This document shows, piece after piece, positions 44,555 through 63,991 of a stretch of 64,000 bases of DNA. Source of the stretch: a virus; IMG/VR virus record IMGVR_UViG_3300045988_172457, positions 13,245 through 77,244 of that record. One strand, 5' to 3'. A program made the translations under genes and the position numbers. The notes under the pieces were generated by a model. The model saw only the letters and a program-made list of their open reading frames with translations. It was not told where the DNA came from and did not search any database. The first letter of the stretch is position 1, and each line of letters begins with the position of its first letter.

Positions 44555-44577
44555 GTGTTACACTGGGTTTACTTGCA
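44555..44577 (+). promoter_or_regulatory. Member of the repeated promoter/leader motif family (GTGTTACACTGGGTTTACTTGCA)
   Basis: Matches the family consensus TGTTAyACTGG..(10-12 nt)..CA. Lies ~90 nt upstream of the 44667 start. Confidence 0.4.
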
Positions 44578-44666
44578 TTTCCTTCCTCGGGACTTCGCCC
44601 ATGTGGGGCTTTAGAGGTTATCAGCGCATTGGTCAGAGTATGCCGTTTGAGTGAAAGGAAACTGTC

Positions 44667-45278
44667 ATGGCAGGTTTTGATGATATTACGGTCACTCGCA
44701 GTGATGTCCGTTTGAAGGTTAAGGCTCCGTATAATCCGTTGTTCGCACGTCGCTCCCGCGCGTTGGGTGGAACGTTTGATGACAAGTTGAAGACTTGGAC
44801 GTTCGATATGCGTGTGGAAAGGCTGGTGTTCGAAGCTTTAGACAAATATTTCTGGTGGCATAAGGGCGTGGACGCTGAAAAGCGTGTCACAGTCACCATC
44901 GACCCCTACGACTACTTGTACGCGTACTCCAAGCAGGATAGCGACATTATCTGGTTCGCTGGTCGAATCCTAGTCGAAAAATATCAGCCCGACCGTCCAC
45001 CGCGCATGATGCCGAATGTGGCTCTCGTGGATGGCATGTGGCCTAAAACCGGCTTGTATACGGGGTTGAATCTCAGTCCCGACAAACTCCGATTATTGGT
45101 ATGGGATGTTCCCACCAGTTTTCTGGAACGACTGTCGTCCGGCAAGTATGAGTTGTCTGAGCCGGATGGTGACACGTTGACTGCGGTTGACGTTCGTATT
45201 CAGGCTGTGGAGGAACGGTTAGGCCGGTTGAGGGAACTCCGAACCCGACTCGCCTCTAATAGTGAGGATGGTGAATGA
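44667..45278 (+). CDS. Hypothetical protein (203 aa)
   Basis: ORF with RBS GAAAGGAAAC before the ATG. Confidence 0.6.
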   Translation: MAGFDDITVTRSDVRLKVKAPYNPLFARRSRALGGTFDDKLKTWTFDMRVERLVFEALDKYFWWHKGVDAEKRVTVTIDPYDYLYAYSKQDSDIIWFAGRILVEKYQPDRPPRMMPNVALVDGMWPKTGLYTGLNLSPDKLRLLVWDVPTSFLERLSSGKYELSEPDGDTLTAVDVRIQAVEERLGRLRELRTRLASNSEDGE

Positions 45279-46282
45279 TGCTCTCCGTGCCGATTAATGG
45301 TCAAGTCCAGTCGCGTCTCATTCCGCCCACGTTCGTGGAAGACAACATCAGCGACATGTTCAAGGCTGTGGACGCCGGACACAATATCGTCGTGACGGCA
45401 GTGGACGAGTACGGTAATCGAACCAGTATTACCACGCCGGATAATGTGAATCATGACATGCTGGGGCGTCCTCTCGAATTCGCGTCCCATCCCGTACTGA
45501 TGCGGAATGTGCGCCGTTGGATGGTTTGGCTGTTGCAAGCGCAATACTGCAAGGATTACAAGTGGGATACGAACAGGCTTGGAGGTTGGATGGAAGTGTT
45601 GGGTTTACCAGCCGACCTTGATATTCCCGTAACGGAGGAACATTTACGCGTGTTGAAGCCTGTGTTTAACAAGGATGATGCCGACCCGTATCGGCTTGTC
45701 GCACGATACGACAAGCAACATTATGCTTCATGCACCCTCAGCACTCTCATACGGTTAGCCGAACAAACCACGCCGAACTATGCCCTGAACAATCCCGCCC
45801 GCTGGTGTCAAACCGACCGATACCGCAAACTCAGCATCCAACCCAATCCGAAAGAAAACTGGGACGGAATGGACAGGGTACGCGACTGTTGGAGCGGATG
45901 CGAATGGGCATACCCCGCATTGGAACGCTACTATAATCCGATTCGACTATTACGCGACGAATACCGGCGGGGAGGACTACCTGAAACCTTCCACTATCCA
46001 ATACACACGACAAGAGGAGAATACCGGTTGGCGAAAGGACAAATCAGCCCCCACGCAACAATCCTCCTCAACGGCAAGCCGGTAGGACTCATGTTCAGCG
46101 ACGATTGCGAGGAACCATTCACCGACCGGATACCACCCGAATGGTGCGCCACACCCTTACCGGAAAACTATAAGACCACGCCACTCAACCGAAACATTCC
46201 CGTAAACGGCGAATTCAAACCATCATTCCAGCAAGCCATGCTGGGATTCGTGGAATGGTATGAGAAAACGCACAAGGGATAG
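45275..46282 (+). CDS. Hypothetical protein (335 aa)
   Basis: ORF translationally coupled (ATGA) to the upstream gene. Confidence 0.6.
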   Translation: MMLSVPINGQVQSRLIPPTFVEDNISDMFKAVDAGHNIVVTAVDEYGNRTSITTPDNVNHDMLGRPLEFASHPVLMRNVRRWMVWLLQAQYCKDYKWDTNRLGGWMEVLGLPADLDIPVTEEHLRVLKPVFNKDDADPYRLVARYDKQHYASCTLSTLIRLAEQTTPNYALNNPARWCQTDRYRKLSIQPNPKENWDGMDRVRDCWSGCEWAYPALERYYNPIRLLRDEYRRGGLPETFHYPIHTTRGEYRLAKGQISPHATILLNGKPVGLMFSDDCEEPFTDRIPPEWCATPLPENYKTTPLNRNIPVNGEFKPSFQQAMLGFVEWYEKTHKG

Positions 46283-46292
46283 CAAAAAGAAA

Positions 46293-46317
46293 AGCCCCTC
46301 GACTGAGGGGCTTTTTC
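46293..46317. terminator. Bidirectional rho-independent terminator
   Basis: AAAAAG-AGCCCCTC-gact-GAGGGGCT-TTTTT, between convergent genes. Confidence 0.6.
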
Positions 46318-46389
46318 AGTAAATGTCACATGGTGTCGGGATTGAATTCTTCCAGCTTGTCCATGCTAAACCGCCCAGAACAACAAAAC

Positions 46390-47547
46390 CTAGTTCTCCG
46401 AGCGTTCGCTGATATTCTCCCGCATCTGCAAATAAGCCCCATGCTCACGCAAGTAATCCCGCAAATACGGCATTTTGAAAGCGACTTCACCGTAACCGAC
46501 CGGCTCAATCAAATCGTTCTCAATCAGCTTGGTTCTATACACGTTGGCGAACTGTGGCGAACGGTTCAACCGACGGGCGATTTCACCTGTATTCGACACC
46601 GTATCATCCACCGACATGGCAAGTAGATAGTTCACCGCATGGGATGGCAAGCCATGCAATGCTGGGGCGTGAACCATATCCCCTAGTTTGGCTTGGGCTT
46701 TTTCGATACCCTTGACCGCGTCCTCCTCGGTCACTTGATTCACATGACCGTTGGTTTCGGACATCCGCCAAGCCCAATAGCCCACCAGCTGAATCATGAA
46801 CGGATAACCGTGAGTGGCGTTGGTCAACCGTATCAGCGTTTCCATTCCGGCTTTCTTCTCGCCGCTGAAGGATTCCTCGAACGCCTTCAATACCTTTTCC
46901 GTGGGGACAGACCCCAAATGGTATCGTTCCGCCCGTTGCAGGAAAGTGATGGCATTGTCGGACAGCACGTCGTTCACTGCGGACGGCAGTCCGGCGAAAA
47001 CGAACGCGATGTTCCGTCCTTCCCGGATGAGATGCTGCACTGCGGTAGACAGTGCTCTGATTTCGTCCATGGAACCGGACTGCACCTCATCCAATGTGAT
47101 GAGGATTCCTTGTTTGGTCTCGTTCATTTTGTCCAATCGTTTTCCGACCGCTTGGCGGAGTGTCAGGGAACGTTCCTCATTATGTTCGAGTTCGATTCTC
47201 CCTAAGCTCAGTTCAAGATTCCCGACGTCCCCTTTCAATCCTACTTTGGGCATGTCGTATGCGGATATGCGGGTGGTGTCCTTGCCGGTGAGCGCGTCCA
47301 CGAGTCTTCGGGTGAAGCCTTTGTCGGCGCTTTCGTTGTAGATTTGCCAACCTTGTTTTTTGGCGTGCTCTCCCAGTGTGTCCAGCATGACTGTTTTGCC
47401 GACTCCTCTGGCTCCTGTGAGGAACATCAGCCGTCCGGGGCTTCCCACACCGTCTTTCAGCGCATAGTCGAAGTCTTCGATGATTTCTTCTCGTCCGACG
47501 AGTATCGGTGGGATACGTCCGGCGGTTGGTTTGAATGGGTTGGTCAT
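46390..47547 (-). CDS. AAA-type ATPase with a C-terminal winged-helix domain (ORC/Cdc6-like 'archaeal ATPase' family), 385 aa
   Basis: Walker A GARGVGKT, Walker B ILITLDEVQ. Start placed at the Met with RBS AAGGAAACAGAC. The ORF-track 5' extension reads through an AT-rich promoter. Confidence 0.7.
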   Translation of the reverse strand: MTNPFKPTAGRIPPILVGREEIIEDFDYALKDGVGSPGRLMFLTGARGVGKTVMLDTLGEHAKKQGWQIYNESADKGFTRRLVDALTGKDTTRISAYDMPKVGLKGDVGNLELSLGRIELEHNEERSLTLRQAVGKRLDKMNETKQGILITLDEVQSGSMDEIRALSTAVQHLIREGRNIAFVFAGLPSAVNDVLSDNAITFLQRAERYHLGSVPTEKVLKAFEESFSGEKKAGMETLIRLTNATHGYPFMIQLVGYWAWRMSETNGHVNQVTEEDAVKGIEKAQAKLGDMVHAPALHGLPSHAVNYLLAMSVDDTVSNTGEIARRLNRSPQFANVYRTKLIENDLIEPVGYGEVAFKMPYLRDYLREHGAYLQMRENISERSEN

Positions 47548-47784
47548 GTCTGTTTCCTTGATTTTATAATAATTATAATAAGTATAATACTTTAAAAAAG
47601 CATGTACCAAGAGGTTAAGTTCGATAATGGGCGAGCTTTGTCGAGAGTAGAGGTTGACGACCTAAACGGAAGTGGTTTAAAATAGATTCTTGTTTGAGAT
47701 AAGGTCACTTTTTCTAAAAGGCATTGAGGGACGGTTCCCGTTTCGGTTTCCGTTCCTCTTTTTTGTGTTGTTTTCATACTTGAG

Positions 47785-47806
47785 GTATACTGGAATTGTT
47801 CACACA
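47785..47806 (+). promoter_or_regulatory. Repeated promoter/leader motif copy 1 (GTATACTGGAATTGTTCACACA)
   Basis: Extended -10 (TG-n-TATACT) followed by the conserved GGAATTGTTCACACA. ~30 nt upstream of the ATG at 47836. Confidence 0.55.
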
Positions 47807-47835: not shown

Positions 47836-48660
47836 ATGAGCAACATCGACAGCATCATCGAACGCATCAACAACCTCATGGCAATAGCCGAAAACGAAGC
47901 ATCCAGCGACAATGAGGCGCAAATGGCGTTCGAGCGGGCACAGAAACTCATTAACGAATATCGTATCGAAGACTGGAAACGCGACCGCACCCGCACGAAC
48001 AAGCCAATCATCGAACGTGGCGTGAACGTAAGCAAAACCACCATCTACCATCAGCAAGGCTACCTTGCGACCATCATCGCCCAAGCTAACGAATGCCGCG
48101 CCTACCTTCACGAAAGCCGGTGTGGCGGAAGGATTGAGGAACGTGCCGTCATGTTCGTAGGCGAGGAGGACGATGTGAACGCCGCAGTCCTTCTCTTCCA
48201 AAGCATCGACCTATACTGCTCAGTCCACGCCCGTACTAGCTACGCGGACATGATTGACAAGCACGCCAAAGCGTACTATGAGGACAACAAGGAATACGTC
48301 GAAACGCATTACGGACGTGAATCCTATCCGACGCTGACGGAATGCAAACAGTACATGCGTCGTGATTATCCACGCGCCAAGTTCTACTATGGTTATCGCG
48401 GTGGATTCAACGAACGTTTGAGCGAACGTTTCGAGGAGCTTCGCAAGCAGAGTCTCGCCATTCCTTCCGGTCGTGAGCTGGTGTCATGTAAGAGTCAGCG
48501 TCTGAACGAGTATTTTGACAAGCTTGAGCTGGTGTCGGGTCATGCGGCCACTGCTCGTGGTAGCAAGGATGGTTTTGCCCGTGGTGTGAGTGACGCGAAC
48601 AATGTGGGTTTGGGTTTGTCTGAAATGGGTGTTTCGTCCCACGCTTTGCTGAATGCCTGA
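47836..48660 (+). CDS. DUF2786-like protein (274 aa)
   Basis: N-terminal IERINNLMAIAENEASSDNEAQMAFERAQKLINEY matches the DUF2786 signature. Confidence 0.6.
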   Translation: MSNIDSIIERINNLMAIAENEASSDNEAQMAFERAQKLINEYRIEDWKRDRTRTNKPIIERGVNVSKTTIYHQQGYLATIIAQANECRAYLHESRCGGRIEERAVMFVGEEDDVNAAVLLFQSIDLYCSVHARTSYADMIDKHAKAYYEDNKEYVETHYGRESYPTLTECKQYMRRDYPRAKFYYGYRGGFNERLSERFEELRKQSLAIPSGRELVSCKSQRLNEYFDKLELVSGHAATARGSKDGFARGVSDANNVGLGLSEMGVSSHALLNA

Positions 48661-48667
48661 CTATGAT

Positions 48668-48689
48668 GTATACTGGAATTGTTCACACA
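48668..48689 (+). promoter_or_regulatory. Repeated promoter/leader motif copy 2 (GTATACTGGAATTGTTCACACA)
   Basis: Identical 22-mer to copy 1. Confidence 0.55.
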
Positions 48690-48712: not shown

Positions 48713-49678
48713 ATGGACAACGACGCAATCAACAGTCTTACCAAAAAGTGGACTGCCAACCTCGTTTACTGCTTCGAGGACTTCGACAACGAAACCCACT
48801 CGCAACGACTGAGCGCATACATCGACCAGAAGTCCTTAGACAAATTCAAGGAAGCCAACCTAATCGAACTGACCAAGGAACGCGACCGTTGGAAGCTTAC
48901 CAACAAGGGAATCGACCTGCTGGAAAGCATTAAGAACATCTACCGGAGTGGAAGAATATTCCCTCTCCCCTTACCGTTCCGTCACTATTACATCAACTGC
49001 AAGTTGAAGTACAACATGAAAATCGAGGACGGAAAGATATACGACGGACTGCGTGAAACCGTGTTGAAAGACCGGAGTCGTGACGTTCGCCGCAAGGTGG
49101 CCGAATATTTGGAATACAAGGGAAAACTCAACTATAAGACCGCGACCAGCCTCGCCAAGGACAAAGACCCCGAACTACGCAAGCTCGCCGCAAAGCATAC
49201 CGTTGCAAGCCTGTGCTGGGAGGAAACGGATTACGACGTTATCCGCTACATGGTGGAAAACAAGCTGGCCGATAGGCTCTGCTTCGAGCATTGGGTGAAA
49301 AGCGAAGACGAAACCATCCGCGCCCTATCGGCACCGTTGGCGGAGGAAACGGACATAGACCCGTTGTTGGACTCCCTTTCCGACGAATCCGCCATCCAAG
49401 TCTTGTTCAATAATCCGGAATGGGTCAAAGGTAAGCGTGCCGTGCGCTTGTGGCGTCGCATGGGCGGGGAAAACCGCCGTTGGATTATGTCCTTTATGTG
49501 GGATGTTCCCGATTCTCTAATTGAGGAGTCGTTAGCGGAACCTCGTAATTGGCAAATCTCTTCTCGATTGGAGGAGTATAAGAAGGCGTTGCAGACCGTG
49601 GCCCGTATGGAGCGCTTGTTTGCCAAGGGTAGTGAGATTAAACGCAAGATGCGTGCCCGTGCCGGTTTGTCCGATTGA
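48713..49678 (+). CDS. Hypothetical protein (322 aa) with HEAT/PBS-like helical repeats
   Basis: Start chosen at the Met with RBS GAAGGAGAAACC. Repetitive ...DPELRKLAAKH.../...DETIRALSAPLAEE... units. Confidence 0.55.
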   Translation: MDNDAINSLTKKWTANLVYCFEDFDNETHSQRLSAYIDQKSLDKFKEANLIELTKERDRWKLTNKGIDLLESIKNIYRSGRIFPLPLPFRHYYINCKLKYNMKIEDGKIYDGLRETVLKDRSRDVRRKVAEYLEYKGKLNYKTATSLAKDKDPELRKLAAKHTVASLCWEETDYDVIRYMVENKLADRLCFEHWVKSEDETIRALSAPLAEETDIDPLLDSLSDESAIQVLFNNPEWVKGKRAVRLWRRMGGENRRWIMSFMWDVPDSLIEESLAEPRNWQISSRLEEYKKALQTVARMERLFAKGSEIKRKMRARAGLSD

Positions 49679-49760
49679 GGTTTGATGGGGGGGGGAAGGC
49701 GGGATGCTGTTTTGGTGTCCCGCTTTTGTTTTTTGGGGTTTTGCGGTTTTTCTCAAGTGT

Positions 49761-49783
49761 GCTATAGTGGAATTGTTCACACA
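49761..49783 (+). promoter_or_regulatory. Repeated promoter/leader motif copy 3 (GCTATAGTGGAATTGTTCACACA)
   Basis: TATAGT -10 variant; the downstream element is identical. Confidence 0.5.
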
Positions 49784-49812: not shown

Positions 49813-50073
49813 ATGTACGCAATCCACTACATCGGCGGCGCAATCAACGTCAAGAAAATGCCCAAAAAACAAGCAGTCGAATACGCCAAACAAATCAACG
49901 ACAACGCCCTCTCAAGCACCTTCCCCGAAAGCGTGAAACTCGTTCAAAGTCCCGAAGCCCGCACCATCATGCAAAACAGACTCTTCGCAAAAGACATCTA
50001 CGCCCGCCACAGCGACGTATACAGCATGAGCATGGCTGAACTCGTCAACGCAGTCAACGAATACTGTTGCTGA
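49813..50073 (+). CDS. Hypothetical small protein (86 aa)
   Basis: ORF with RBS AAAAGGAGCAC. Confidence 0.5.
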   Translation: MYAIHYIGGAINVKKMPKKQAVEYAKQINDNALSSTFPESVKLVQSPEARTIMQNRLFAKDIYARHSDVYSMSMAELVNAVNEYCC

Positions 50074-50119: not shown

Positions 50120-50482
50120 ATGTACTCGAAAATCAGCGAAGACACCTATCGGAAACTCATCGACAAACTCGTCAGAATCCCCTACGTGACCGGCGCTCAC
50201 GCAACCCGAGCCATCTTCGGAGACGGAATCGAAGTCGCATTCCAACACCGTTACATGGGCAAGCAGGTCGAGTACTATCTGGTGGCCGACTCGCAACGAG
50301 ACGGCAGACGTTCCTACCGTTGGCGTGGCGGAGTATACACGGTTCCGTCCGCACACTGGACTTTCGATGACGGGGAATACACGCCCGTCGAACTGGAAGA
50401 ACATAAGCTGGAATCGTTGGATGTTGACGGACTGTATGACGCGATTGTGTCCGATTTAGACAAGGCCATGAGAGAATTGTAG
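50120..50482 (+). CDS. Hypothetical protein (120 aa)
   Basis: ORF with RBS AAAAGGACAA. Confidence 0.5.
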   Translation: MYSKISEDTYRKLIDKLVRIPYVTGAHATRAIFGDGIEVAFQHRYMGKQVEYYLVADSQRDGRRSYRWRGGVYTVPSAHWTFDDGEYTPVELEEHKLESLDVDGLYDAIVSDLDKAMREL

Positions 50483-50492
50483 GAAAACGAAA

Positions 50493-50867
50493 ATGCGATT
50501 CACCGACGGCAAGGAAAAGCTGGAAATCGAAATCCACGAAGGCCAGCATTCTTGGGATACAACGGTAGAATTCTTCGACCATTTGACGACTCCCATTCTG
50601 AATGGGACTCGTCAGGTGGGAAACGTTCGCACTCTACTGACGAACGTGTACAACAGGATTCTAGGCATGTCCGACTATCCCGCACCGGAAGCCGACACTC
50701 GGGCAATCTACACCATCGCCGACTTGGCTGGAACCATTGTCAGGGAAGGTTCTTTCACTTCGTCCAACAATCCAGCCAACACGTATTGCAGTGGTTGCGG
50801 TTGCCTTCTCAGCGAGGAGAACGAGAACCTTTGCGGTGATACCAGCTGGTGCGATAACTGCTACTGA
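50493..50867 (+). CDS. Hypothetical protein (124 aa) with a C-terminal Cys-rich zinc-ribbon-like motif
   Basis: CSGCGCLLSEENENLCGDTSWCDNCY. Confidence 0.5.
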   Translation: MRFTDGKEKLEIEIHEGQHSWDTTVEFFDHLTTPILNGTRQVGNVRTLLTNVYNRILGMSDYPAPEADTRAIYTIADLAGTIVREGSFTSSNNPANTYCSGCGCLLSEENENLCGDTSWCDNCY

Positions 50868-50934
50868 GATTGGAAGACTGCCGTTTCTATGCTTCCTTAT
50901 TGTTCTATCGGATTGTGTTTTGCGCTAATATCAT

Positions 50935-50956
50935 ATATACTGGAATTGTTCACACA
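50935..50956 (+). promoter_or_regulatory. Repeated promoter/leader motif copy 4 (ATATACTGGAATTGTTCACACA)
   Basis: Same motif. Confidence 0.55.
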
Positions 50957-50985: not shown

Positions 50986-51240
50986 ATGAGCAACACCACC
51001 ACAGAAATCAACTGGCACAACACCCTCCCCCAAAACTTGGAAGGCCACAAGTGCATCGCCGTCACCAAAACCGGCGAAACCATCGAAGGCATACTGGAAT
51101 ATCGCACGGCACAACCCGACATGTATGTGAGAATCGATAGCCTCCACTTCCCCGGCGTCAAACCATGGGTTATTGTCAACCAATGCGAATCCGGCAACGA
51201 AATGGGCGAAGAATTCCAGTCCGTGAAAGTGTTCGCCTGA
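50986..51240 (+). CDS. Hypothetical small protein (84 aa)
   Basis: Start at the Met with RBS AAGGAGAAAA. Confidence 0.5.
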   Translation: MSNTTTEINWHNTLPQNLEGHKCIAVTKTGETIEGILEYRTAQPDMYVRIDSLHFPGVKPWVIVNQCESGNEMGEEFQSVKVFA

Positions 51241-51851: not shown

Positions 51852-52067
51852 ATGCCCCATTACTTGTTGGACGCGGCTAATGACGCGACTGAACTCCCAT
51901 CCGCAGACTTGGATAACATCCAGTCGGTTCTGCGTACCACGCCTACTCTTGATTCAGAAGCGACCGTGTTGGCTTGCGAGATTCTGAATGCTTGGGACGA
52001 GGATTGTAGGATTCTTCGCCGCCGTCCGAGGCTGGTGTTGTTGAATGTTGAGGAGCCGGAATTCTAA
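51852..52067 (+). CDS. Hypothetical small protein (71 aa)
   Basis: ATG with RBS AAGGAG at spacing 5. Confidence 0.45.
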   Translation: MPHYLLDAANDATELPSADLDNIQSVLRTTPTLDSEATVLACEILNAWDEDCRILRRRPRLVLLNVEEPEF

Positions 52068-52107: not shown

Positions 52108-52132
52108 TGTGTTAGAGTGAGATAGCCCACAC
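52108..52132 (+). promoter_or_regulatory. Diverged member of the promoter/leader family (TTGTGTTAGAGTGAGATAGCCCACACC)
   Basis: Shares the GTGTTAnAnTG...CACAC framework. Upstream of 52149. Confidence 0.35.
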
Positions 52133-52148
52133 CAAAAAAGGAAAACCA

Positions 52149-52394
52149 ATGGCCTTAAAAGAACTTCCCTATCAAGACGGAATCAACTGGAAAGAATTCG
52201 AAGGCAAGTCCGCGATATTCAAATGGAACGGCAAACCCATGGCCGGAACCCTCTACTTGGACGGTTTCAGCAATCTCGCAGTTCGTGAACTGTCCGGTTA
52301 CATGCCGGTCTTATATATTTGGCCGGATGATACGAGTCATGTCAACGTCGAGCGTGTGACGGATTTTCATGTGTTCGAGTTCGTTGAGGATTAG
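52149..52394 (+). CDS. Hypothetical small protein (81 aa)
   Basis: ORF with RBS AAAAGGAAAACC. Confidence 0.5.
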   Translation: MALKELPYQDGINWKEFEGKSAIFKWNGKPMAGTLYLDGFSNLAVRELSGYMPVLYIWPDDTSHVNVERVTDFHVFEFVED

Positions 52395-52824
52395 TGTAGT
52401 TCGGGACGCTGGCACTGCGGCTTCTATTCCCATTCCGGGGACAATCCGAACGTATTATCCCGGCTTCGATATTTGGTTCAACCGCACGGTTCTCCCCTCA
52501 TTGGGGAAAGGCCGTGCGATTCTTTTAGCCCGCATAAACGGTGAGTTGGCGGGGTTTTGCGTTCTCAAGAGAAATCCGTCTGAACGGAAGATTTGCACTT
52601 TGTATGTCTACGAGGGTTTTCGGAGTCGAGGGGTTGGTTCCACGCTGGTCGAATATGCATTGAAATCGCTGGATGAACGGTTCCCTCTGGTGACAGTGCC
52701 GGAAGAGCTGTTGCCGATGTATGAGGGTTTCTTCCGTCGTTTTGATTTTCGTCTGTCCGGCTCTCGTGTGGGTTTGTATCGGGTTGGGAAGAGGGAGTTC
52801 TTTTTTAACGGGACGCTGGCTTAG
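52369..52824 (+). CDS. GNAT-family N-acetyltransferase (start uncertain)
   Basis: Acetyl-CoA-binding motif FRSRGVGSTLVEYAL and a GNAT-like C-terminal fold. The annotated start overlaps the upstream gene. Confidence 0.55.
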   Translation: MCSSSLRISVVRDAGTAASIPIPGTIRTYYPGFDIWFNRTVLPSLGKGRAILLARINGELAGFCVLKRNPSERKICTLYVYEGFRSRGVGSTLVEYALKSLDERFPLVTVPEELLPMYEGFFRRFDFRLSGSRVGLYRVGKREFFFNGTLA

Positions 52825-52855
52825 GTTTGCGTGTTGCGTTTTTCTACCCCCTTGT

Positions 52856-52877
52856 GTTATAGTGGGATTGTTCACAA
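52856..52877 (+). promoter_or_regulatory. Repeated promoter/leader motif copy (GTTATAGTGGGATTGTTCACAA)
   Basis: Same family. Confidence 0.5.
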
Positions 52878-52909
52878 CAAAAACAAAGACAACCAAAAAG
52901 GAGAACGCA

Positions 52910-53281
52910 TTGAATCAAGCAACTAAATTCGGCAAACGAATCCTCTTCGATGACCACCCAACTCGCGCAGTATTCGACACCAAGGAACTGCCAACAGACG
53001 ACTCCCATGCGCTCTACCGCGTATACCTGCGCTCTTGGCAACGGCATTCCTGCCGACCGGGAACCGAGAATACACCCATGTTCGACGTGATATGCCCGAC
53101 AAGATGGTGCCGTTGGATTACCCACATCAGCATTCTGAACTATTTGGACGGCATAAGCTGGCTGGCTTGGCCAGTGGAAGGTGGCGTCAGCTGGCGGCAT
53201 AGGACAATCGACCCCTATTCCGTCCACTATTCCACCGATACCCATATTCCGGTAATCGACCTGCGCAAAAGCGAAGAATAG
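52910..53281 (+). CDS. Hypothetical protein (123 aa) with a TTG start
   Basis: TTG preceded by RBS GGAGAACGCA. The protein is W/C/H-containing. Confidence 0.4.
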   Translation: MNQATKFGKRILFDDHPTRAVFDTKELPTDDSHALYRVYLRSWQRHSCRPGTENTPMFDVICPTRWCRWITHISILNYLDGISWLAWPVEGGVSWRHRTIDPYSVHYSTDTHIPVIDLRKSEE

Positions 53282-53981: not shown

Positions 53982-53984
53982 GGC

Positions 53985-54007
53985 GTTATACTAGAAACGT
54001 CCACACA
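53985..54007 (+). promoter_or_regulatory. Repeated promoter/leader motif copy (GTTATACTAGAAACGTCCACACA)
   Basis: Same family. 26 nt upstream of the exonuclease gene's ATG. Confidence 0.5.
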
Positions 54008-55590: not shown

Positions 55591-55616
55591 TTTTCCAGCG
55601 TTTTAAAGACTGGATT

Positions 55617-55640
55617 GTTATAGTGAAACAGTGGGCACAA
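55617..55640 (+). promoter_or_regulatory. Repeated promoter/leader motif copy (GTTATAGTGAAACAGTGGGCACAA)
   Basis: Same family, diverged downstream half. Confidence 0.4.
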
Positions 55641-55681
55641 TACTGTGCTCGCTGTTTTTCTTATTCTCAGGAGGAACCGGA

Positions 55682-55942
55682 ATGTCCCAGCATAGCAACA
55701 AAAGTCACAAGAACAAGAAGGCCGTGGTCATCGAGAAGGTGCGGGACAAGTATGGTTCCGTCATTGCCTTGAAGGTCGTATTGTATCGTCGGCATGATAC
55801 TGAGAATGGGAAGGTTTGGAATATGAAGCGTTCTCATACGTTCAGTGCGGCTTTCAGTCGTCGTGCTTGTAGGGAACAGGCGAAGACGTTGGCTCGTCAG
55901 TGGGCTGATAAGTATGGTGCGAAGGTTGTGAAGAGGGGTTAG
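55682..55942 (+). CDS. Small basic protein (86 aa)
   Basis: RBS GGAGGAACCGGA before the ATG. K/R-rich. Confidence 0.5.
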   Translation: MSQHSNKSHKNKKAVVIEKVRDKYGSVIALKVVLYRRHDTENGKVWNMKRSHTFSAAFSRRACREQAKTLARQWADKYGAKVVKRG

Positions 55943-55961
55943 TTACCCTCTTTGGTTTTAT

Positions 55962-55984
55962 GTTATACTGGGGGCGTTCACATA
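55962..55984 (+). promoter_or_regulatory. Repeated promoter/leader motif copy (GTTATACTGGGGGCGTTCACATA)
   Basis: Same family. Confidence 0.5.
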
Positions 55985-56010: not shown

Positions 56011-56310
56011 ATGCAGAACATCAACCTCTACAAACTGACGTCAAAACTGTACGCCCGACCCGAAGTCGAGGACGCTGACATCGTGAGCTGTATGTACACG
56101 GACGACACCATCAAAACGGTCATGCGCAACGGCACGGTCGTCGCCATCGGCGTGCAGGACGAATATCCAGCGGTCGCACTGTACACCATATACGCCAACG
56201 ACGAGGGCTACCGAAACAAGGAGCCTCTGATTGAAGGCTTGCACTACGACTTCGAAGACGACCACGACTACAAGGACGGCGTGGAAGCCATCATCAAGGA
56301 GGCGTGCTAA
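56011..56310 (+). CDS. Hypothetical small protein (99 aa)
   Basis: RBS AAGGAGAACACC before the ATG. Confidence 0.5.
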   Translation: MQNINLYKLTSKLYARPEVEDADIVSCMYTDDTIKTVMRNGTVVAIGVQDEYPAVALYTIYANDEGYRNKEPLIEGLHYDFEDDHDYKDGVEAIIKEAC

Positions 56311-56313: not shown

Positions 56314-56694
56314 ATGGACACCATCATCTTCGTCAAAGACCGCGACTGGCCGGGCACCGACAGTCGTGTCTACGAAATTCAGGTGTCCAACTTGGTTGCG
56401 ATATGCGTATCCTGCTGGGTGCTGCTGGAGGACGGACGGTTCTCTGGCGACGTGCTTCCCGACAAGGGGCTGCGCGAACGGTATTTCGCATTGTACGAAC
56501 ATGGCGGCGAACAGGCCAACTGGGATGCGTTCATCGACGACCTTTGGCAGACCGCCGATGACATGGGCTTGGAGGAGCTGTCCGACTGGTTCGCTGAAAT
56601 GAACGACCCCACCACCATCAATGCCCGCTACTGGATTCACGACGGCGTCGAATACTTGGACGCCGCGCACACCATGCCAAGGAGCGAAATGTGA
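56314..56694 (+). CDS. Hypothetical protein (126 aa)
   Basis: RBS AAGGAGG. Coupled to the upstream gene. Confidence 0.5.
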   Translation: MDTIIFVKDRDWPGTDSRVYEIQVSNLVAICVSCWVLLEDGRFSGDVLPDKGLRERYFALYEHGGEQANWDAFIDDLWQTADDMGLEELSDWFAEMNDPTTINARYWIHDGVEYLDAAHTMPRSEM

Positions 56695-56769
56695 CCTGTC
56701 TTATCACGAAAACCCCAAAGCCAAGCAGAAACAACCTCAACCTTCCCCTATGAAAAAAGGAGTGGAGAA

Positions 56770-57180
56770 ATGACCGGTTTCATCGCCGTCGATATGCTGT
56801 CCGAAATCAGCAAGGCCCTCGAATACGAAAACGATTGGACTCAACTGAAGGACGGCGTGCTGGAATGCCGACTGCGAGACCAGTATGACGGCGAGCACAC
56901 CGGCCTCGCCCGCGTCACTATAAACAAGGCGGGTAAGGTGTCCGTTATGGCATGGTCGGACAATCCGTACGAATACAAGACCATGCCCGAGCCGGATTGG
57001 ACGCATGAATACGATTCGACCGACCCGGAAGCCATCGCGGAGGACATTTGGAACCGTTGCCCATACTGCGGGCGGGAATCCGACAAGTGCGTGTGCGAAC
57101 GTTGCGCGGGCTGCGGTGTTCTTTTGGACTGGGACAACAGGGCGGACGGCGATTATGGCTACTGCGAATACTGCCATTAG
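56770..57180 (+). CDS. Hypothetical protein (136 aa) with a C-terminal multi-Cys zinc-ribbon motif
   Basis: CPYCGRESDKCVCERCAGCGVLLDW...YCEYCH. Confidence 0.5.
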   Translation: MTGFIAVDMLSEISKALEYENDWTQLKDGVLECRLRDQYDGEHTGLARVTINKAGKVSVMAWSDNPYEYKTMPEPDWTHEYDSTDPEAIAEDIWNRCPYCGRESDKCVCERCAGCGVLLDWDNRADGDYGYCEYCH

Positions 57181-57198
57181 AAAAAAGGAGAAACGGAA

Positions 57199-57849
57199 AT
57201 GTTGAGAATCGAGAAGACGCTGAAAGAACTGCGTGACCTTCAAAACACCTTGCATGGACTCGGAATCGAAATGTCCATCAATGATGCGGATGTCGAAACG
57301 AAAAGCGATTACGAGGATGCGGCGATGACCATTGACATATACGAGCCGTGTCGTTGTTTCGCGTGGGTCGGCATGGACGGCGTGGTTCACATGAGATGGA
57401 ATTCGTATCCCGATGCCTTCACGTGGTTTCGGATGAACCTGCTTTTGGACCTCGCTCGCGGCTACATGCTGAAAGCGGACAATATCACGAAATCGTGGAC
57501 GCACCTTCGCAGGAATCTCGACGGACAAGCCGACGAAATGCCCCTCCCCGACAAACTGGCCGGAAGGAAAGCGGAATACGAGGATGCAGCCAACCGGCTA
57601 CGCGACCTTATCAAAGCTGACCCGATTGCAATGGATTTATCCCCTTACGAATGCGAACGCCTTGAAAGGTTCCTCCGCGACCCGCAGAAGGAGCGTCTTC
57701 TGGAGTACGACCCGGACGACCCGTTTTATCGGAATATGTTCAACAGGGGATTGATTGACCGCGAGGGACTGACTGAACTGGGACGAAAGGCTATGGAACA
57801 TTACATTTCCGTGCGTCAACCTCGGATACGGGTTGGTTTGTCTTCTTAA
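57199..57849 (+). CDS. Hypothetical protein (216 aa)
   Basis: RBS AAAAAGGAGAAACGGAA before the ATG. Confidence 0.55.
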   Translation: MLRIEKTLKELRDLQNTLHGLGIEMSINDADVETKSDYEDAAMTIDIYEPCRCFAWVGMDGVVHMRWNSYPDAFTWFRMNLLLDLARGYMLKADNITKSWTHLRRNLDGQADEMPLPDKLAGRKAEYEDAANRLRDLIKADPIAMDLSPYECERLERFLRDPQKERLLEYDPDDPFYRNMFNRGLIDREGLTELGRKAMEHYISVRQPRIRVGLSS

Positions 57850-57857
57850 CCAACTGT

Positions 57858-57880
57858 GTTATACTGGGGGTGTTCACATA
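57858..57880 (+). promoter_or_regulatory. Repeated promoter/leader motif copy (GTTATACTGGGGGTGTTCACATA)
   Basis: Near-identical to the 55962 copy. Confidence 0.5.
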
Positions 57881-57925: not shown

Positions 57926-58552
57926 ATGCATAGCCTATACAAGACCGCAGGTAAATGCACTCTCAACCGAAACAAAGTGCGTTACCCCAACCAAAAGGAA
58001 GCCCAACTCGCCTTGGCCGTCATCAAAGGACGAGGCAATCCGAAACACACTGAGAAACGCGCATACCATTGCCCCGTCTGCCACGGATGGCATCTGACTA
58101 GCGCCGAAACCGTTAATGATACAGTCCTGTCCGGGAGTGTGCTCCAACACACCAATCCAGACGCGTTCGACACAGGAATGAAAGCGTTCCTCTCTGGTTC
58201 CAAACGCGGCAAATATTCCGCAAGCAAAGCCAGCCTGACCCGACGTGTCCGACATTTGCTCCACTTGTTCGCGGCTAACGATATTCCGAAGGACTCTTGG
58301 GACAATCCATGGTTGTGGGCAACTCTTAGATTCCAAGTCATGTGGAGGGGCGGAGACCAGAAGGCCGAACAGCTTCTATCCACTTCGAAGAAAACGGTCA
58401 AAATGGCGGGCGACATGCTCACCGAAGACAAGGAGCCGTTCCTTCGCGTGGCTGAAACCCGGAAGGAAGCACAGAAATTACAGAATACACCACTACCGGC
58501 ATGGTTGGCCGTCGCACTGATGTCCGACAAGGGAAAGGAGCAGAAAGTTTGA
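57926..58552 (+). CDS. Hypothetical protein (208 aa) with a CPVCHGWH zinc-finger-like motif
   Basis: Start at the Met downstream of the promoter copy. HCPVCHGWH. Confidence 0.5.
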   Translation: MHSLYKTAGKCTLNRNKVRYPNQKEAQLALAVIKGRGNPKHTEKRAYHCPVCHGWHLTSAETVNDTVLSGSVLQHTNPDAFDTGMKAFLSGSKRGKYSASKASLTRRVRHLLHLFAANDIPKDSWDNPWLWATLRFQVMWRGGDQKAEQLLSTSKKTVKMAGDMLTEDKEPFLRVAETRKEAQKLQNTPLPAWLAVALMSDKGKEQKV

Positions 58553-59953: not shown

Positions 59954-61009
59954 ATGGTTAGAAAAATGGTGAGCGTTCAAAAGATTGAGGGAGTGTATCC
60001 CATTGAGAACGCAGACCGTATCGAGAAGATTCGCATTGGCGGTTGGATTGTCGTAGTAGGCAAGGACATGGGATTAAAGCCCGGCGACCATGTGGCCTAT
60101 TACGAAATCGACTCCATGCTGCCCGCCGACGACCCACGCTATACGGACTTGCAGAAGCGTGGTCAGCGTACCGTTCCCGTGTCCAACACGATTACCGGCG
60201 AAGAGAAGGAAATCACCGGACACGTGCTACGTACCGCGCGACTGCGCGGAGTGTACAGTCAAGGACTAGTCATGCCGCTTTCAACGATTGGCGTACCGGA
60301 GGACACTCCCATCGGCACTGATATCACCTTACAGGCGGACGTATGGAAGTATGAGGAACTGCCACCATTGAAAGGCGGTGACATGGTTGGTGCTTTCAAC
60401 GCGCCATGCTCCAAGTCCGACGCCACGCGAGTGCAGAATCTCACCGCGTATTGGGATGAAATCAGGCGGATTGCGTGGACTCCGACCGTGAAGGTGGACG
60501 GTACCAGCACCACAATCTACCGTGATATGGATGATACGGTTCACGTCTACTCTCGCAATTGGGAGTTGAAGCCGGAATGCACGAACATGCAGGTGGCGGT
60601 GAAAACCGGATTGGTTGACGCGTTGGAGAAAGGCATGGTCTGCCAGTTCGAGCTGTGCGGCCCAAGTGTCAACGGCAACAGGTTGAAGCTGGCGTCCTAT
60701 CGTCCATTCGTGTTCGCCGTATGGCGTGACAATATGAAACTCGACCGTAGGGATTGGCCGAAAGCCATGCTTGACAACGCCGTCCCACTGTTAGACGAGA
60801 CCGAGTGGAAGCCGACCGGCGATGTGATGGACATGATTGCCAAAGTGGACGGTCTGCGCGGCAACGTGACCCGCGACTTGTTGGACGAAGGAATCGTCTG
60901 GCATGCGAAAGCGGGCGAACGGTTGAGCGACGACCTGTACAACGAGCTTGGCAGCAACCGTTGCTTTAAAATCATCAACAACAAGTATCTGACTAAGCAT
61001 GGTCTTTGA
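59954..61009 (+). CDS. ATP-dependent RNA ligase family protein (351 aa)
   Basis: N-terminal OB-like domain (KIEGVYPIENADRIEKIRIGGWIVVVGKD...GDHVAYYEIDSMLP). Nucleotidyltransferase motif I KVDGTS (the adenylated lysine). Resembles the DraRnl/NgrRnl-type Rnl family. Confidence 0.6.
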   Translation: MVRKMVSVQKIEGVYPIENADRIEKIRIGGWIVVVGKDMGLKPGDHVAYYEIDSMLPADDPRYTDLQKRGQRTVPVSNTITGEEKEITGHVLRTARLRGVYSQGLVMPLSTIGVPEDTPIGTDITLQADVWKYEELPPLKGGDMVGAFNAPCSKSDATRVQNLTAYWDEIRRIAWTPTVKVDGTSTTIYRDMDDTVHVYSRNWELKPECTNMQVAVKTGLVDALEKGMVCQFELCGPSVNGNRLKLASYRPFVFAVWRDNMKLDRRDWPKAMLDNAVPLLDETEWKPTGDVMDMIAKVDGLRGNVTRDLLDEGIVWHAKAGERLSDDLYNELGSNRCFKIINNKYLTKHGL

Positions 61010-61079
61010 TGTCGAATAGGGGGCTGGGCTTACTTTTGTGTTCAGACCCCTGTTTCGTCTTTCATATCATTCCTGTCTT

Positions 61080-61102
61080 GTTATACTGGGGATGTTTACA
61101 AA
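61080..61102 (+). promoter_or_regulatory. Repeated promoter/leader motif copy (GTTATACTGGGGATGTTTACAAA)
   Basis: Same family. Located inside the 3' end of the RNA ligase gene region. Confidence 0.4.
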
Positions 61103-61108
61103 CGCCGG

Positions 61109-61306
61109 ATGAAACAAAGAAGTGGCGAATTGAATATCTCCAACATGTCGGAAGAGACGATAGAAGAAAACCTACCCGACCTGTCCCCGCATTTAGAGGA
61201 TGGGTTCAGTCTGAAACAGCTTGAAACACTCCACGATTATGCCGTGGAAGCTTTCAAGGCCGGAATCGAATACGCCAACAACAATCGAAAAGGAGCCGTA
61301 AATTGA
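61109..61306 (+). CDS. Hypothetical small protein (65 aa)
   Basis: ORF with a weak RBS. Sits just downstream of the promoter copy. Confidence 0.35.
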   Translation: MKQRSGELNISNMSEETIEENLPDLSPHLEDGFSLKQLETLHDYAVEAFKAGIEYANNNRKGAVN

Positions 61307-62301
61307 CCGATAGGAAAACGTGGGTCATCTCCATTCCACCAGTCAAATGTCCCGATGACATGACCGGCATCCCTAACTATTACATTCAAATATGGGAAAA
61401 GTACGTCGGCAAGGTCAAGCCGGAAGGTGGAGACCGTGAGGATTGGATTGAAACCTGTTCCCGACTTTACTGGGGTGTCCGCAATCTAGGTGAGGACGCC
61501 ATAGTCCGAGTGCATGGGAAAACCGACATCGACCCGAAACAGCTAATCGGATTACCGCACTTCGGACAAGTGTTGGACATGCCGCCAATCGACCAGTATG
61601 CAGACCCATCTCATGCCGACCGTTACGCCATCAATTCCAACGTGCGTATGCTCATGCATCGGAAGGCGAAACTCAGTTCCATCTACGAGGATGACATCAA
61701 ACATGCGTTCGCTTCTCTTATTAGGGACGGTGTTTCGTCGTTCTTCATCAAATTCATGAACCAAGCCAAATGGCTACCGAATTTGAAAATCTCCGGAACT
61801 AATCTTGACGAGCTTGAACAGCAGGTGCAGGAGTGGGGAGGTTGGGCGTTTGTTCATGCGGATGATGACCCGAATGCTCTGCTTATTCAGGAGAATGTCG
61901 ATGTCCAATACGAGTATCGCATGTTCATGGTCGGCAACCAGCCTGTCTGCGGCGCTGGCAATATCGGATTGAAAACACCAATCGACAACATGCATACGAG
62001 ATTTGACCCTCAAATGCAGAAGATTCGTGACGACACCACCGTTAAGAACGTTGAACTCAGACCGGATTTGGCGGAACGATACCGTGAGTTCGCCACGCGA
62101 GCCGGACGAATGTTCTCACACTGCGGTTACGGCGCGTACACGCTCGACCTGTGTCTTATCAAGGGTGAAGTGTCAATCGTGGAATTGAACGGCATGATGA
62201 ACGCCGGACTGTTCGCATTGAACATGAACGATTTGACGAGCGCGTTGCGAGTCAATTGGAAACAGTGTCTTCCCCCGGTTCTACTCGAAACGGCTATCTA
62301 A
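61303..62301 (+). CDS. ATP-grasp fold enzyme (332 aa)
   Basis: C-terminal ...YTLDLCLIKGEVSIVELNGMMNAG fits the ATP-grasp Mg/ATP-binding E-x-N motif. TTG start with RBS AAAGGAG. Confidence 0.5.
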   Translation: MTDRKTWVISIPPVKCPDDMTGIPNYYIQIWEKYVGKVKPEGGDREDWIETCSRLYWGVRNLGEDAIVRVHGKTDIDPKQLIGLPHFGQVLDMPPIDQYADPSHADRYAINSNVRMLMHRKAKLSSIYEDDIKHAFASLIRDGVSSFFIKFMNQAKWLPNLKISGTNLDELEQQVQEWGGWAFVHADDDPNALLIQENVDVQYEYRMFMVGNQPVCGAGNIGLKTPIDNMHTRFDPQMQKIRDDTTVKNVELRPDLAERYREFATRAGRMFSHCGYGAYTLDLCLIKGEVSIVELNGMMNAGLFALNMNDLTSALRVNWKQCLPPVLLETAI

Positions 62302-62317
62302 AAAGAGAGGAATAATA

Positions 62318-62818: not shown

Positions 62819-63246
62819 TGTCTGTTGGCTTGTTTTTAAATAGAGAGGGAGTATTTTTGCGACCACAATCAGAAGACACCGTGGAACTCACCACCGTCAT
62901 CGACCCCGCGTCCATCACACGCATGGCGTCCAGCCGTCCGGACAATAGGGAAACCACCATGTATGGCAGACACGGCAAGCATGACAGCAAGCCGCCAAAA
63001 ATCAAAAAGTCACGGGCTAAAACGGATAAAACCAAACATCCCATAGAACAGGTCATGCCATTCGTCATGCTCGCCGTAAGCATTGTTTTCTTGGCGGGGA
63101 TGGTTCCGATTCTCTGGCTTATGCCGGTTTCGGAACCAGAGGATATGATTGTCCGTCCTATTCTGACCGGCCTGATTGGTGTGGTGGCGGTTTCCGCCAA
63201 CATTCCGGCTTGGGTGTATTTCTCCCGTTGGCGTCGAGATTCATAG
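62818..63246 (+). CDS. Membrane protein (142 aa, 2 TM), start uncertain
   Basis: Helices VMPFVMLAVSIVFLAGMVPILWLM and ILTGLIGVVAVSANIPAWVYF. Confidence 0.45.
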   Translation: MSVGLFLNREGVFLRPQSEDTVELTTVIDPASITRMASSRPDNRETTMYGRHGKHDSKPPKIKKSRAKTDKTKHPIEQVMPFVMLAVSIVFLAGMVPILWLMPVSEPEDMIVRPILTGLIGVVAVSANIPAWVYFSRWRRDS

Positions 63247-63272
63247 AAAAGCTAAATCCGAAACATTTCCTT

Positions 63273-63295
63273 GTTATACTGGAAACAACCACATT
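63273..63295 (+). promoter_or_regulatory. Repeated promoter/leader motif copy (GTTATACTGGAAACAACCACATT)
   Basis: Same family. Confidence 0.45.
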
Positions 63296-63317
63296 CAAGC
63301 AAAAGCAAGGAAAACAC

Positions 63318-63587
63318 ATGCCTAGAACCACACTAGCCGATGTCGCATCCGACTACGTGCGCAAACACCAGCACGAACGGCAATGCCGTCAACTCGACTC
63401 CGATAGTCGCGTCACGCTCACGGTAATCCAAAACCAGTGGGCGAAACTCGCCGGACAGGAACCCATGACCATTTTCGACGCGCCGGAGGTCGTAATTAGA
63501 AGCATCGAAAACACGCAACGCGGACACGAACTGTTCGACCGCACAAAAGAAACAAACGGGGTCGTCTACTACGGCCTGAAAAATTGA
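63318..63587 (+). CDS. Hypothetical small protein (90 aa)
   Basis: RBS AAGCAAGGAAAACAC before the ATG. Confidence 0.5.
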   Translation: MPRTTLADVASDYVRKHQHERQCRQLDSDSRVTLTVIQNQWAKLAGQEPMTIFDAPEVVIRSIENTQRGHELFDRTKETNGVVYYGLKN

Positions 63588-63604
63588 AAGGAAACAAAAA
63601 CATA

Positions 63605-63991
63605 ATGTCGGAACTCGCAGAGGACACCAGAAGGGTAACGCTTCTACTGGGAGACAATCCGGAAGGAAATCAATGGCATACATGCTTGGACTTGTCCCAC
63701 AACGAGTATGCCATCCAAAAACTGCGTGAGACCGGAAGACTGGAAGCAGGGAAGGCCACTTCGCTGACCGTCGAACAGTTGCAGAACCTTCTCACCAAGG
63801 CGCAGAAGGACGCCCACGGGTTCCAAGACACTCCCACCGGCAAATGCTTGCGAGGCAGTGAGCCTGAACGGAGACTACAGGCATACAAGTTCGCTGAAAA
63901 CCTCAACCGTGCCCTCTGTGAAGGCTCTCCCGTGTATTGTTCGGAGTCTGAGCCGAGGCTGGACTTATCTTTCCCGAGTTTCAAGGACTGA
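63605..63991 (+). CDS. Hypothetical protein (128 aa)
   Basis: ATG with RBS GAAAGGAAAC. Confidence 0.5.
   Translation: MSELAEDTRRVTLLLGDNPEGNQWHTCLDLSHNEYAIQKLRETGRLEAGKATSLTVEQLQNLLTKAQKDAHGFQDTPTGKCLRGSEPERRLQAYKFAENLNRALCEGSPVYCSESEPRLDLSFPSFKD

Follow-up and report, generated by a model that had tools for sequence, protein, structure and literature searches.

A repeated -10/box motif, probably a promoter module, heads variable gene cassettes on a relative of the Bifidobacterium megaplasmid pMP7017

The 64,000-nucleotide (nt) stretch of DNA analysed here (the window; positions 13,245 to 77,244 of IMG/VR record IMGVR_UViG_3300045988_172457) carries a long run of small genes between which a short motif recurs, consisting of a TATACT -10 hexamer and a GT(T/C)CACA box at a fixed distance behind it. 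All coordinates refer to the whole window, and the position of a motif copy is that of the first T of its -10 hexamer. The run, which we call the array, comprises ~36 plus-strand genes between 44667 and 63991; eleven motif copies in the interval 47.8–63.3 kb head units of between one and five genes, ~34 genes in all. Array products that could be recognised are a DUF2786/DUF7168 protein, a GNAT acetyltransferase, an RNase_T-type exonuclease, an RNA ligase and an R2K ATP-grasp protein, several of which look like nucleic-acid-handling or establishment-type functions; Pfam gave no family assignment for the remaining array genes. The initial annotation of this DNA had placed all genes of the region on the plus strand, which does not hold for a 385-amino-acid (aa) ATPase gene at 46390–47547, a minus-strand gene that is so called in all related contigs. 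For gene calls we relied on those accompanying the related contigs, and dropped our own greedy open reading frame (ORF) caller because of spurious antisense ORFs.

The window also encodes a ParA-like ATPase, a RepA_C-type replication protein, DnaB and an SPFH protein, as well as a pilin, a sortase, a 1867-aa surface protein and a reverse transcriptase, and no virion genes were recognised among its proteins. The best plasmid matches of DnaB, at 52–54% identity, are the megaplasmid pMP7017 of Bifidobacterium breve (53%) and its B. longum relatives. The backbone proteins are ~52–53% identical to those of pMP7017, and pilin, sortase, large-surface-protein, partition and accessory genes are common to the two lineages. 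A megablast of the region against phage records returned nothing, and one against plasmids returned a single 514-bp cassette that is common to B. longum plasmids. All named homologs of the minus-strand ATPase come from Bifidobacterium or Bombiscardovia. Given the DnaB and ATPase homologs and the 514-bp cassette, which is 97% identical to B. longum plasmid DNA, the host is almost certainly a Bifidobacterium; by the same protein homologies, the window is an uncultured element distantly related to the conjugative pMP7017. A 116-kb metagenome contig matches the window with a single base difference in 14 kb, the proteins of the window recur unchanged on 205–231 kb contigs from many human-gut samples, and single proteins of this lineage are indexed in ~500 blocks of a public metagenome collection. 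Many such megaplasmids are listed as viral in IMG/VR (for example IMGVR_UViG_3300029338_000174, 217 kb); since the window carries plasmid functions and no recognised virion genes, this listing is probably a misclassification.

The motif is repeated far beyond chance. A position-weight matrix (PWM) was built from the aligned copies and both strands of the window were rescanned, with a noise floor of ~8 bits and 0–7 matches per shuffle. The full 24-mer has 10 matches in the window at up to three mismatches, compared with 0 in 100 dinucleotide-preserving shuffles, and its core TATANTGGNNNNGTTYACA has 12 compared with 0.4 expected; the strong copies fit TG-n-TATA(C/G)T-GGRRnn-GT(T/C)CACA, for which the chance expectation is ~0. 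The non-random repetition described in the initial annotation was thereby confirmed, while several details changed. Ten of its 13 listed copies are strong (25–37 bits) and the one at 52108 is real but diverged (14 bits), whereas those at 44555 and 55617 lie at noise level, and a supposed relative at 21876 does not score in the matrix scan. A 19-mer, ATACTGGAATTGTTCACAC, that had been ascribed to four copies is common to three, the copy at 49763 having TATAGT instead. Nor is the motif confined to 44.5–64 kb: four more copies lie elsewhere in the window, at 31290 (plus), 26873 (minus), 4246 (minus) and 3777 (minus), each aimed at the next same-strand gene, and on the same contig three more follow past the window end, at 64510, 65789 and 66395. 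None of the 15 good copies falls inside a gene, and each points in the direction of the gene that follows it. Their position just upstream of a ribosome-binding site (RBS) and ATG, earlier put at 20–45 nt, stands as to placement, with the start codon 36–66 nt from the -10 and nearly always an AAGGA RBS. The copies are listed below with their PWM scores and, after the semicolon, the genes that each would drive.

47781–47806, plus strand: motif copy (TGAGGTATACTGGAATTGTTCACACA), 37.0 bits, start codon 50 nt after the -10; DUF2786/DUF7168 gene 47836–48660 (Pfam), whose pMP7017 ortholog also has the motif.
48664–48689, plus strand: recombinant motif copy, 35.0 bits; 321-aa gene 48713–49678.
49758–49783, plus strand: TATAGT variant, 36.0 bits, with a terminator at 49695–49727 upstream and with different upstream neighbours in the related contigs L003 and L002; genes 49813–50073, 50120–50482 and 50493–50867.
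50931–50956, plus strand: motif copy, 32.3 bits; genes 50986–51240 through 51852–52067.
52108–52133, plus strand: diverged copy (TTAGAGTGAGATAGCCCACACC), 14.4 bits, also found in contig L003; precedes gene 52149–52394 and the GNAT gene 52369–52824.
52853–52878, plus strand: motif copy, 34.1 bits; genes 52910–53281, 53290–53685 and 53712–53981.
53982–54007, plus strand: motif copy with a GTCCACACA box, 30.9 bits; RNase_T-type 3'-5' exonuclease gene 54033–54617 and later genes.
55959–55984, plus strand: motif copy, 34.1 bits; genes 56011–56310, 56314–56694, 56770–57180 and 57199–57849.
57855–57880, plus strand: motif copy, 35.6 bits; genes 57926–58552 through the RNA ligase gene 59954–61009.
61077–61102, plus strand: motif copy with a GTTTACA box, 30.5 bits; gene 61130–61306, the ATP-grasp gene 61303–62301 and genes to 63246.
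63270–63295, plus strand: motif copy with an AACCACA box, 25.5 bits; genes 63318–63587 and 63605–63991.
31285–31310, plus strand: weaker copy, not part of the array, in the interval that separates dnaB from the SPFH/Band_7 gene, 18.5 bits, start codon 39 nt downstream; SPFH/Band_7 gene 31329–32726.
26853–26878, minus strand: motif copy, 36.8 bits; heads a run of small minus-strand genes with the first start at ~26804 (gene calls L024 and L025).
4226–4251, minus strand: motif copy, 34.5 bits; 123-aa gene 4194–3823.
3757–3782, minus strand: motif copy, 27.6 bits; gene 3740–3408.
44554–44579, plus strand: doubtful, the first copy of the initial annotation, -10 at 44559, 9.6 bits, a -10-like TTACACTGG (TTACACT) lacking the CACA box; 108 nt ahead of gene 44667–45278.
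55614–55639, plus strand: doubtful, earlier given as 55617, -10 at 55619, 8.8 bits, TATAGT with no box in register; overlaps a strong hairpin at 55625–55658.

Adjoining the minus-strand copies is a gene for a protein with a GmrSD_C-type restriction endonuclease domain (4515–5540, minus strand).

Aligning 59 non-redundant copies of the window lineage gave the consensus tg-n-TATACT-GGaAtt-GTtCACAcA-aaa, in which the -10 hexamer, the GG that follows it and the CACA are nearly invariant, while the 6-base spacer between hexamer and box is fixed in length and partly variable in sequence. The box is almost always paired with a -10 at this fixed spacing. It is asymmetric, and neither dyad symmetry nor a potential hairpin is seen in the motif. 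The view that the hexamer is a -35-independent extended -10 is supported: a -35 element was not found above chance (at least 4/6 matches in 15% of copies compared with 11% of controls in the window lineage), and the full TGn is present in 54% of copies only, with a G at -14 in 75%. With the usual 7-nt spacing after the -10, the G of the box would be the transcription start, so that the predicted placement of the box at the transcript 5' end fits the earlier proposal of a shared leader. The accompanying suggestion of an RNA-level control site is not favoured. The leaders are 25–54 nt long and ~46% A, their mean folding z-score is ~0 relative to shuffled controls, and no Rfam family was matched anywhere in the window at gathering thresholds, which speaks against RNA-level control by a structured element; since the leaders fold no better than the shuffled controls, we gave up the idea of a riboswitch or attenuator. 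Also set aside, on account of spacing and a weakly conserved left arm, were a CRP-like dyad (TGTTA-N12-TCACA), a LexA box, an extracytoplasmic-function (ECF)-type -35 and a -35/-10 pair in another register. Each copy thus consists of a -10 of the housekeeping-sigma type, TATACT, mostly preceded by a G or TG and lacking a -35, a GG discriminator, a GT(T/C)CACA(C/T)A box at the fixed 6-nt spacing and an unstructured A-rich leader with a strong RBS.

The same element is known from the related plasmid. Dineen et al. 2024 (Microb Biotechnol 17:e14405; PMC10832533) profiled pMP7017 by RNA sequencing (RNA-seq) and described a 34-bp motif overlapping the -10, AWAYATGY-TATACT-GAATATGTCCACATAAAAWA, upstream of highly transcribed genes. 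Six promoters with this motif are among the most highly transcribed genes, 13 further copies were found, and the 19 copies together are predicted to drive 56 genes, or 24% of the coding capacity (PMC10832533). The authors propose a transcription factor site and a presumed plasmid-specific regulon, and report that the pMP7017-type motif precedes comparable genes in related plasmids and is absent from bifidobacterial chromosomes (PMC10832533). The proposal in the initial annotation of one regulon with a shared promoter box is supported by this RNA-seq motif and its presumed 56-gene regulon.

A matrix for which only window copies served as training set picks up ~26 copies in pMP7017, with unchanged register and nearly all of them ahead of annotated genes; their consensus, TATGTTATACTGAATATGTCCACATAAAA, is that of the published 34-bp motif. 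The two lineages have a motif of equal length and register, TATACT-GGAATT-GTTCACACA in the window and TATACT-GAATAT-GTCCACATA on pMP7017. Like its counterpart, the window motif combines a TATACT -10 and a GT(C/T)CACA(T/C)A box at the same spacing, is present in many copies before start codons, lies within ~60 bp upstream of translation starts, is co-oriented with the genes and in some cases precedes equal genes. The differences are that GC content is 57% in pMP7017 compared with ~52% in the window lineage, that apart from the one 514-bp cassette there is no nucleotide-level match, that the consensus is GGAATTGTTCACACA in the window but GAATATGTCCACATA in pMP7017, and that in the window lineage a -35 is rarer and the leader less conserved.

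Orthologs headed by the motif in both lineages include the DUF2786 gene, the exonuclease gene, the RNA ligase operon and the gene for a 179-aa protein. Between the lineages these promoters have retained the -10 and the CACA box, whereas the 40 nt upstream are 28–30% identical, which is the random level. The exonuclease gene 54033–54617 is a case in point, its motif-headed pMP7017 ortholog being 56% identical and the flanks only ~30% identical. A third lineage, reached via an ATPase homolog assigned to B. thermophilum, also has the motif, and IMG/VR holds more than 107 stretches with 354 motif sites. By comparison, when 185,579 species, each represented by one genome, were scanned for the pattern, only 3 isolated matches came up, in Chloroflexota and Lentisphaerae metagenome-assembled genomes, and the motif is absent from the chromosomal loci of B. 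panos and Bombiscardovia that were examined. With the -10 and box kept at orthologs between random flanks, presence in three lineages and near-absence elsewhere, these comparisons indicate that the motif is a conserved, selected, family-specific signal.

We also noted a few GTCCACATAAAA boxes on pMP7017 (L021–L023) that lack a -10 at the usual spacing, at 60373, 107051 and 147856; one such box-only site lies inside a helix-turn-helix (HTH) regulator gene, 106877–107530, divergent from a motif copy. A search of the sequence of the window lineage for the WhiB protein of pMP7017, and likewise for HTH regulators, found no WhiB within the partial plasmid coverage available.

Taking the anatomy together with the published transcription data, we consider it likely that the motif is a promoter module of a Bifidobacterium megaplasmid family and is the element reported on pMP7017. 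That the window copies act as promoters is suggested by RNA-seq on the homologous plasmid. Most likely, we infer, the box is a protein-binding site through which the plasmid would control its gene units in a coordinated manner.

The units are in part delimited by terminators, for which the following features were identified.

49695–49727, plus strand: intrinsic-terminator-like hairpin and T-run (15 pairs, 6 of them GC pairs, then GTTTTTTGGG), which closes the preceding cassette.
47728–47744, 55929–55954 and 57815–57837: similar, weaker terminator-like hairpins.

These hairpins stand ahead of the copies at 47786, 49763, 55964 and 57860, and no convincing one was found at the others.

Ten related contigs have the array flanks in common and differ in the gene content between motif copies, which bears out the earlier description of modular gene cassettes. 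Homology to contig L002 breaks off at 48662, 2 nt past the stop codon of the DUF2786 gene, and picks up again precisely at 48669; L002 carries 8 kb of other cassettes that are skipped at this junction. The copy at 48669 is itself chimeric: the six bases before it are those of one L002 copy, and its downstream flank is that of a second. Elsewhere one cassette stands behind different upstream neighbours, and one upstream flank stands before different cassettes. After de-duplication, 9 of 27 within-array homology starts fall at -30 to 0 of the motif, compared with ~5% expected. When 472 sites from all contigs compared were gathered and their flanks clustered with tolerance of insertions and deletions (indels), 25 downstream flanks had at least two upstream partners at the motif, compared with 7–16 at control offsets (~2x); a clustering by Hamming distance (39 compared with 3–7 at controls) had overstated the junction enrichment and was replaced. 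On these comparisons the motif is a preferred, not exclusive, junction. A promoter and its genes behave as one cassette, plasmid copies differ in the cassettes they carry, and crossovers favour the 20–26 bp of identity at the motif.

A comparable arrangement exists in the promoter-early stem-loops (PeSLs) of T4-type phages, promoter/terminator motifs that mediate small-gene shuffling (Arbiol et al. 2010, PMC2839356; Comeau et al. 2014, PMC4122927). Like the window motif, PeSLs are repeated in regions packed with small variable genes and are points of homologous exchange between unrelated sequences. Unlike them, the window motif belongs to a plasmid and not a phage, has no sequence relationship to PeSLs, has a terminator half at only some copies, is conserved downstream of the -10 rather than as a -35 with a stem-loop, and is only modestly enriched at junctions.

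The coincidence of cassette boundaries and crossovers with the motif would also be expected if it were primarily the recombination site of a dedicated cassette-exchange system, comparable to the attC of integrons, with its likeness to a promoter being secondary. We regard this as very improbable. No integrase or site-specific recombinase is associated with the array according to gene calls and Pfam, the motif lacks dyad symmetry and hairpin potential, many junctions lie elsewhere, and some copies precede conserved backbone genes away from the variable array. Integron gene cassettes, moreover, are promoterless and have an attC and an integrase, whereas the units described here have their own promoter, with no integrase seen and no dyad symmetry.

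Several side observations concern the make-up of these arrays. The 514-bp cassette at 56681–57194 has its 97% match in plasmid p1 of B. longum (NZ_CP065398.1). On p1, a motif copy of the pMP7017 type and a very short start-stop ORF (GAGGAGCGAAATGTGA) stand ahead of the cassette; in the window, homology to p1 starts at GGAGCGAAATGTGA, just past the place where the motif would be expected, and the cassette is fused to the end of ORF 56314–56694. The sequence match suggests a recent exchange between two plasmid lineages. Variant arrays (20747–20825 of L004; 12700–12879 of L002 and other loci) contain cassettes that have no counterpart in the window, among them ones for an ArdC-like anti-restriction protein (ArdcN and Peptidase_M78) and a 59-aa HTH_17 protein, and these fit an establishment or anti-defence role of the array. 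Genes for IS200/IS605-family TnpB and Y1 transposases (597–1766 in the window, and loci L002, L005, L006, L010 and L011) are scattered in and around related arrays, and cassettes are sometimes interrupted. Just upstream of the array, at 42020–44397, lies a diversity-generating retroelement with a template repeat at 42818–42987, a variable repeat at 42020–42189 at the 3' end of a DUF6273 gene and a reverse transcriptase gene at 43168–44397; its repeats differ at 29 of 170 positions, 24 of which are template adenines.

What reads the box can be approached from its sequence, from the genes around it and from its position in the promoter. As to sequence, the box resembles a DnaA box. In Mycobacterium and Streptomyces, the DnaA box of high affinity reads TTGTCCACA (PMC4285127, Table 1), and the predicted oriC boxes of B. 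longum include TTGTCCACA and TTATTCACA (PMC2430713). In the window lineage the box 9-mer is TTGTTCACA in 28 of the 59 non-redundant copies, and TT[A/G/T]TNCACA is fitted exactly by 30 of them and at one mismatch by 13 more. The pMP7017-lineage 9-mer is ATGTCCACA, with one of 30 copies exact and 22 at one mismatch. One third-lineage copy is TTGTCCACA exactly, the T/C position that separates the consensus boxes of the two lineages is the N of the DnaA-box consensus, and 71 kb of this plasmid contain six exact matches to the DnaA box, every one within a motif promoter and all in one orientation.

Host DnaA might therefore bind the promoters at about -2 to +7 and tie cassette expression to the state of DnaA, a reading that we put forward tentatively and that would mean that the plasmid incidentally carries at least 30 DnaA-binding sites. 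As in promoters overlapped by DnaA boxes, a 9-mer matching TTGT(C/T)CACA lies over the predicted start in one orientation, but the first two positions are weakly conserved: the TT is only 64–70% conserved, and the pMP7017 lineage has an A at position 1. The likeness was also noticed after the CRP, LexA and ECF consensuses had been tried, and so incurs a multiple-comparison penalty. DnaA would not account for the conservation that continues beyond the box (CACA-yA-A); binding at +1 would be expected to repress, yet six such promoters of pMP7017 are among the most highly transcribed; and boxes of this type were not reported by the authors of the pMP7017 replicon study. A literature search for TTGTCCACA as a string alone retrieved primer sequences only. 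We know of no system in which a DnaA box stands at dozens of plasmid promoters. Somewhat less likely still is the fuller picture in which a genuine DnaA box stands at the start of 20–40 promoters per plasmid, DnaA, possibly with a plasmid-encoded Orc1/Cdc6-like protein, gates a quarter of the genes, the plasmid acts as a DnaA sink and the module serves as a homology patch for cassette swaps.

That protein brings in the neighbouring genes, in the form of the minus-strand ATPase.

46390–47547, minus strand: Orc1/Cdc6-like AAA+ ATPase with a C-terminal winged helix (Pfam AAA_16), divergent from the first strong motif copy.

KorA and KorB of IncP plasmids provide a model for plasmid-encoded regulators, and the box could similarly be the operator of a regulator encoded on the plasmid, for which this winged-helix ATPase is the candidate; our confidence in this is low. 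The restriction of the motif to the plasmid family and its absence from host chromosomes fit a plasmid-borne reader, and the asymmetry of the box and its rigid distance from the -10 point the same way. The ATPase gene occupies one conserved place in 10 of 10 related contigs, its pMP7017 counterpart, 52% identical, adjoins a motif copy there, and a motif copy comes immediately after the ATPase gene in the third lineage. An alignment-based AlphaFold model (mean predicted local distance difference test (pLDDT) 82, predicted template modelling score (pTM) 0.75; single-sequence pLDDT 37) has an AAA+ domain and a C-terminal winged helix, and its best fold matches are DNA-bound archaeal Cdc6/Orc1 structures (1fnn, 2qby, 1w5s). 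The counterpart on pMP7017 was re-annotated as DnaA-like by Dineen et al. (PMC10832533).

Against this, close homologs of the ATPase occur in ordinary chromosomal surroundings with no motif near (87% identity in B. panos; Bombiscardovia), so that the link between ATPase and motif is only positional, and nothing ties the winged helix to the motif sequence. The promoter region of the ATPase gene itself is without a box, and no other recognisable DNA-binding protein appears in the array gene calls of the window. A role of the ATPase as the DNA-binding factor is speculative. We also observed in the ATPase promoter region (47563–47589, minus strand) three tandem 9-bp units, TATTATA(C/A)(T/A), which make up overlapping -10-like hexamers within very AT-rich sequence.

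A plasmid repressor reading repeated promoter elements has a precedent on IncN plasmids such as pKM101, where CUP (conserved upstream) repeats in the leading region are read by the repressor ArdK (Delver & Belogurov 1997, cited in PMC6289460). The two systems are alike in having repeated promoter-region elements before establishment or anti-restriction genes of a conjugative plasmid. They differ in phylum and in sequence, no ArdK-like gene was recognised in the array gene calls, and the pMP7017 promoters are active in established cells.

As to position, the box may belong to the promoter and leader themselves, through the start site, promoter escape or a favourable mRNA 5' end, with no dedicated factor involved; the uniformity of the copies would then come from selection for strong expression and from copy-and-paste or gene conversion among them. 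RNA polymerase has its own preferences in this region, through sigma region 1.2 contacts and start-site selection, and the GG after the -10 and the purine at the predicted +1 fit them. The box is essentially never found apart from the -10 at fixed spacing, the pMP7017 similarity extends through the leader to the RBS (AAATAATCGAAAGAGGAAA) as in a propagated expression cassette, chimeric copies show recombination between copies, and the pMP7017 promoters are highly active in the established plasmid. What this account leaves unexplained are the seven invariant or nearly invariant bases from +1 to +7, kept across lineages with ~50% identical proteins and unalignable leaders, which is more than polymerase contacts usually demand. 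Host promoters, moreover, lack the box, and there are a few box-only sites on pMP7017. Our confidence in a reader-free box is low as well, and we rate the three readings, DnaA, a plasmid protein and no factor, about equally.

Several observations weigh against a promoter module that is coordinately controlled and bounds cassettes. Many copies of the window lineage lack both a -35 and the full TGn, so that promoter strength with the host polymerase alone is uncertain, and the pMP7017 starts were inferred from ordinary RNA-seq, in which ~20 nt are lost at the 5' end according to the authors (PMC10832533). A convincing upstream terminator is present at only about half of the copies, no regulator was recognised in the array gene calls, and the junction enrichment is modest once indels are allowed, with junctions occurring elsewhere too. 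The anatomy of the motif, its conservation across lineages and the junctions at it are nonetheless read directly from the aligned copies and contigs.

The finding is not new in kind, since the motif and a presumed regulon were published for pMP7017 in 2024. New here, by comparison of the plasmid sequences, are that the motif is kept across at least three lineages while the flanks are randomised, and that it marks the boundaries of variable cassettes, with crossovers inside it. The resemblance to a DnaA box and the neighbouring Orc1/Cdc6-like gene are leads rather than findings; neither that resemblance nor the cassette shuffling at the motif is in the pMP7017 paper.

For Bifidobacterium genetics the motif would provide a ready-made portable promoter and leader. 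For the biology of the family, these megaplasmids are common in human gut bifidobacteria, and a considerable part of their genes, mostly of unassigned function, seems to be under the control of the motif. Conserved across lineages, absent from chromosomes and bounding cassettes, it may offer a compact handle on how the cargo of these plasmids is regulated and diversified.

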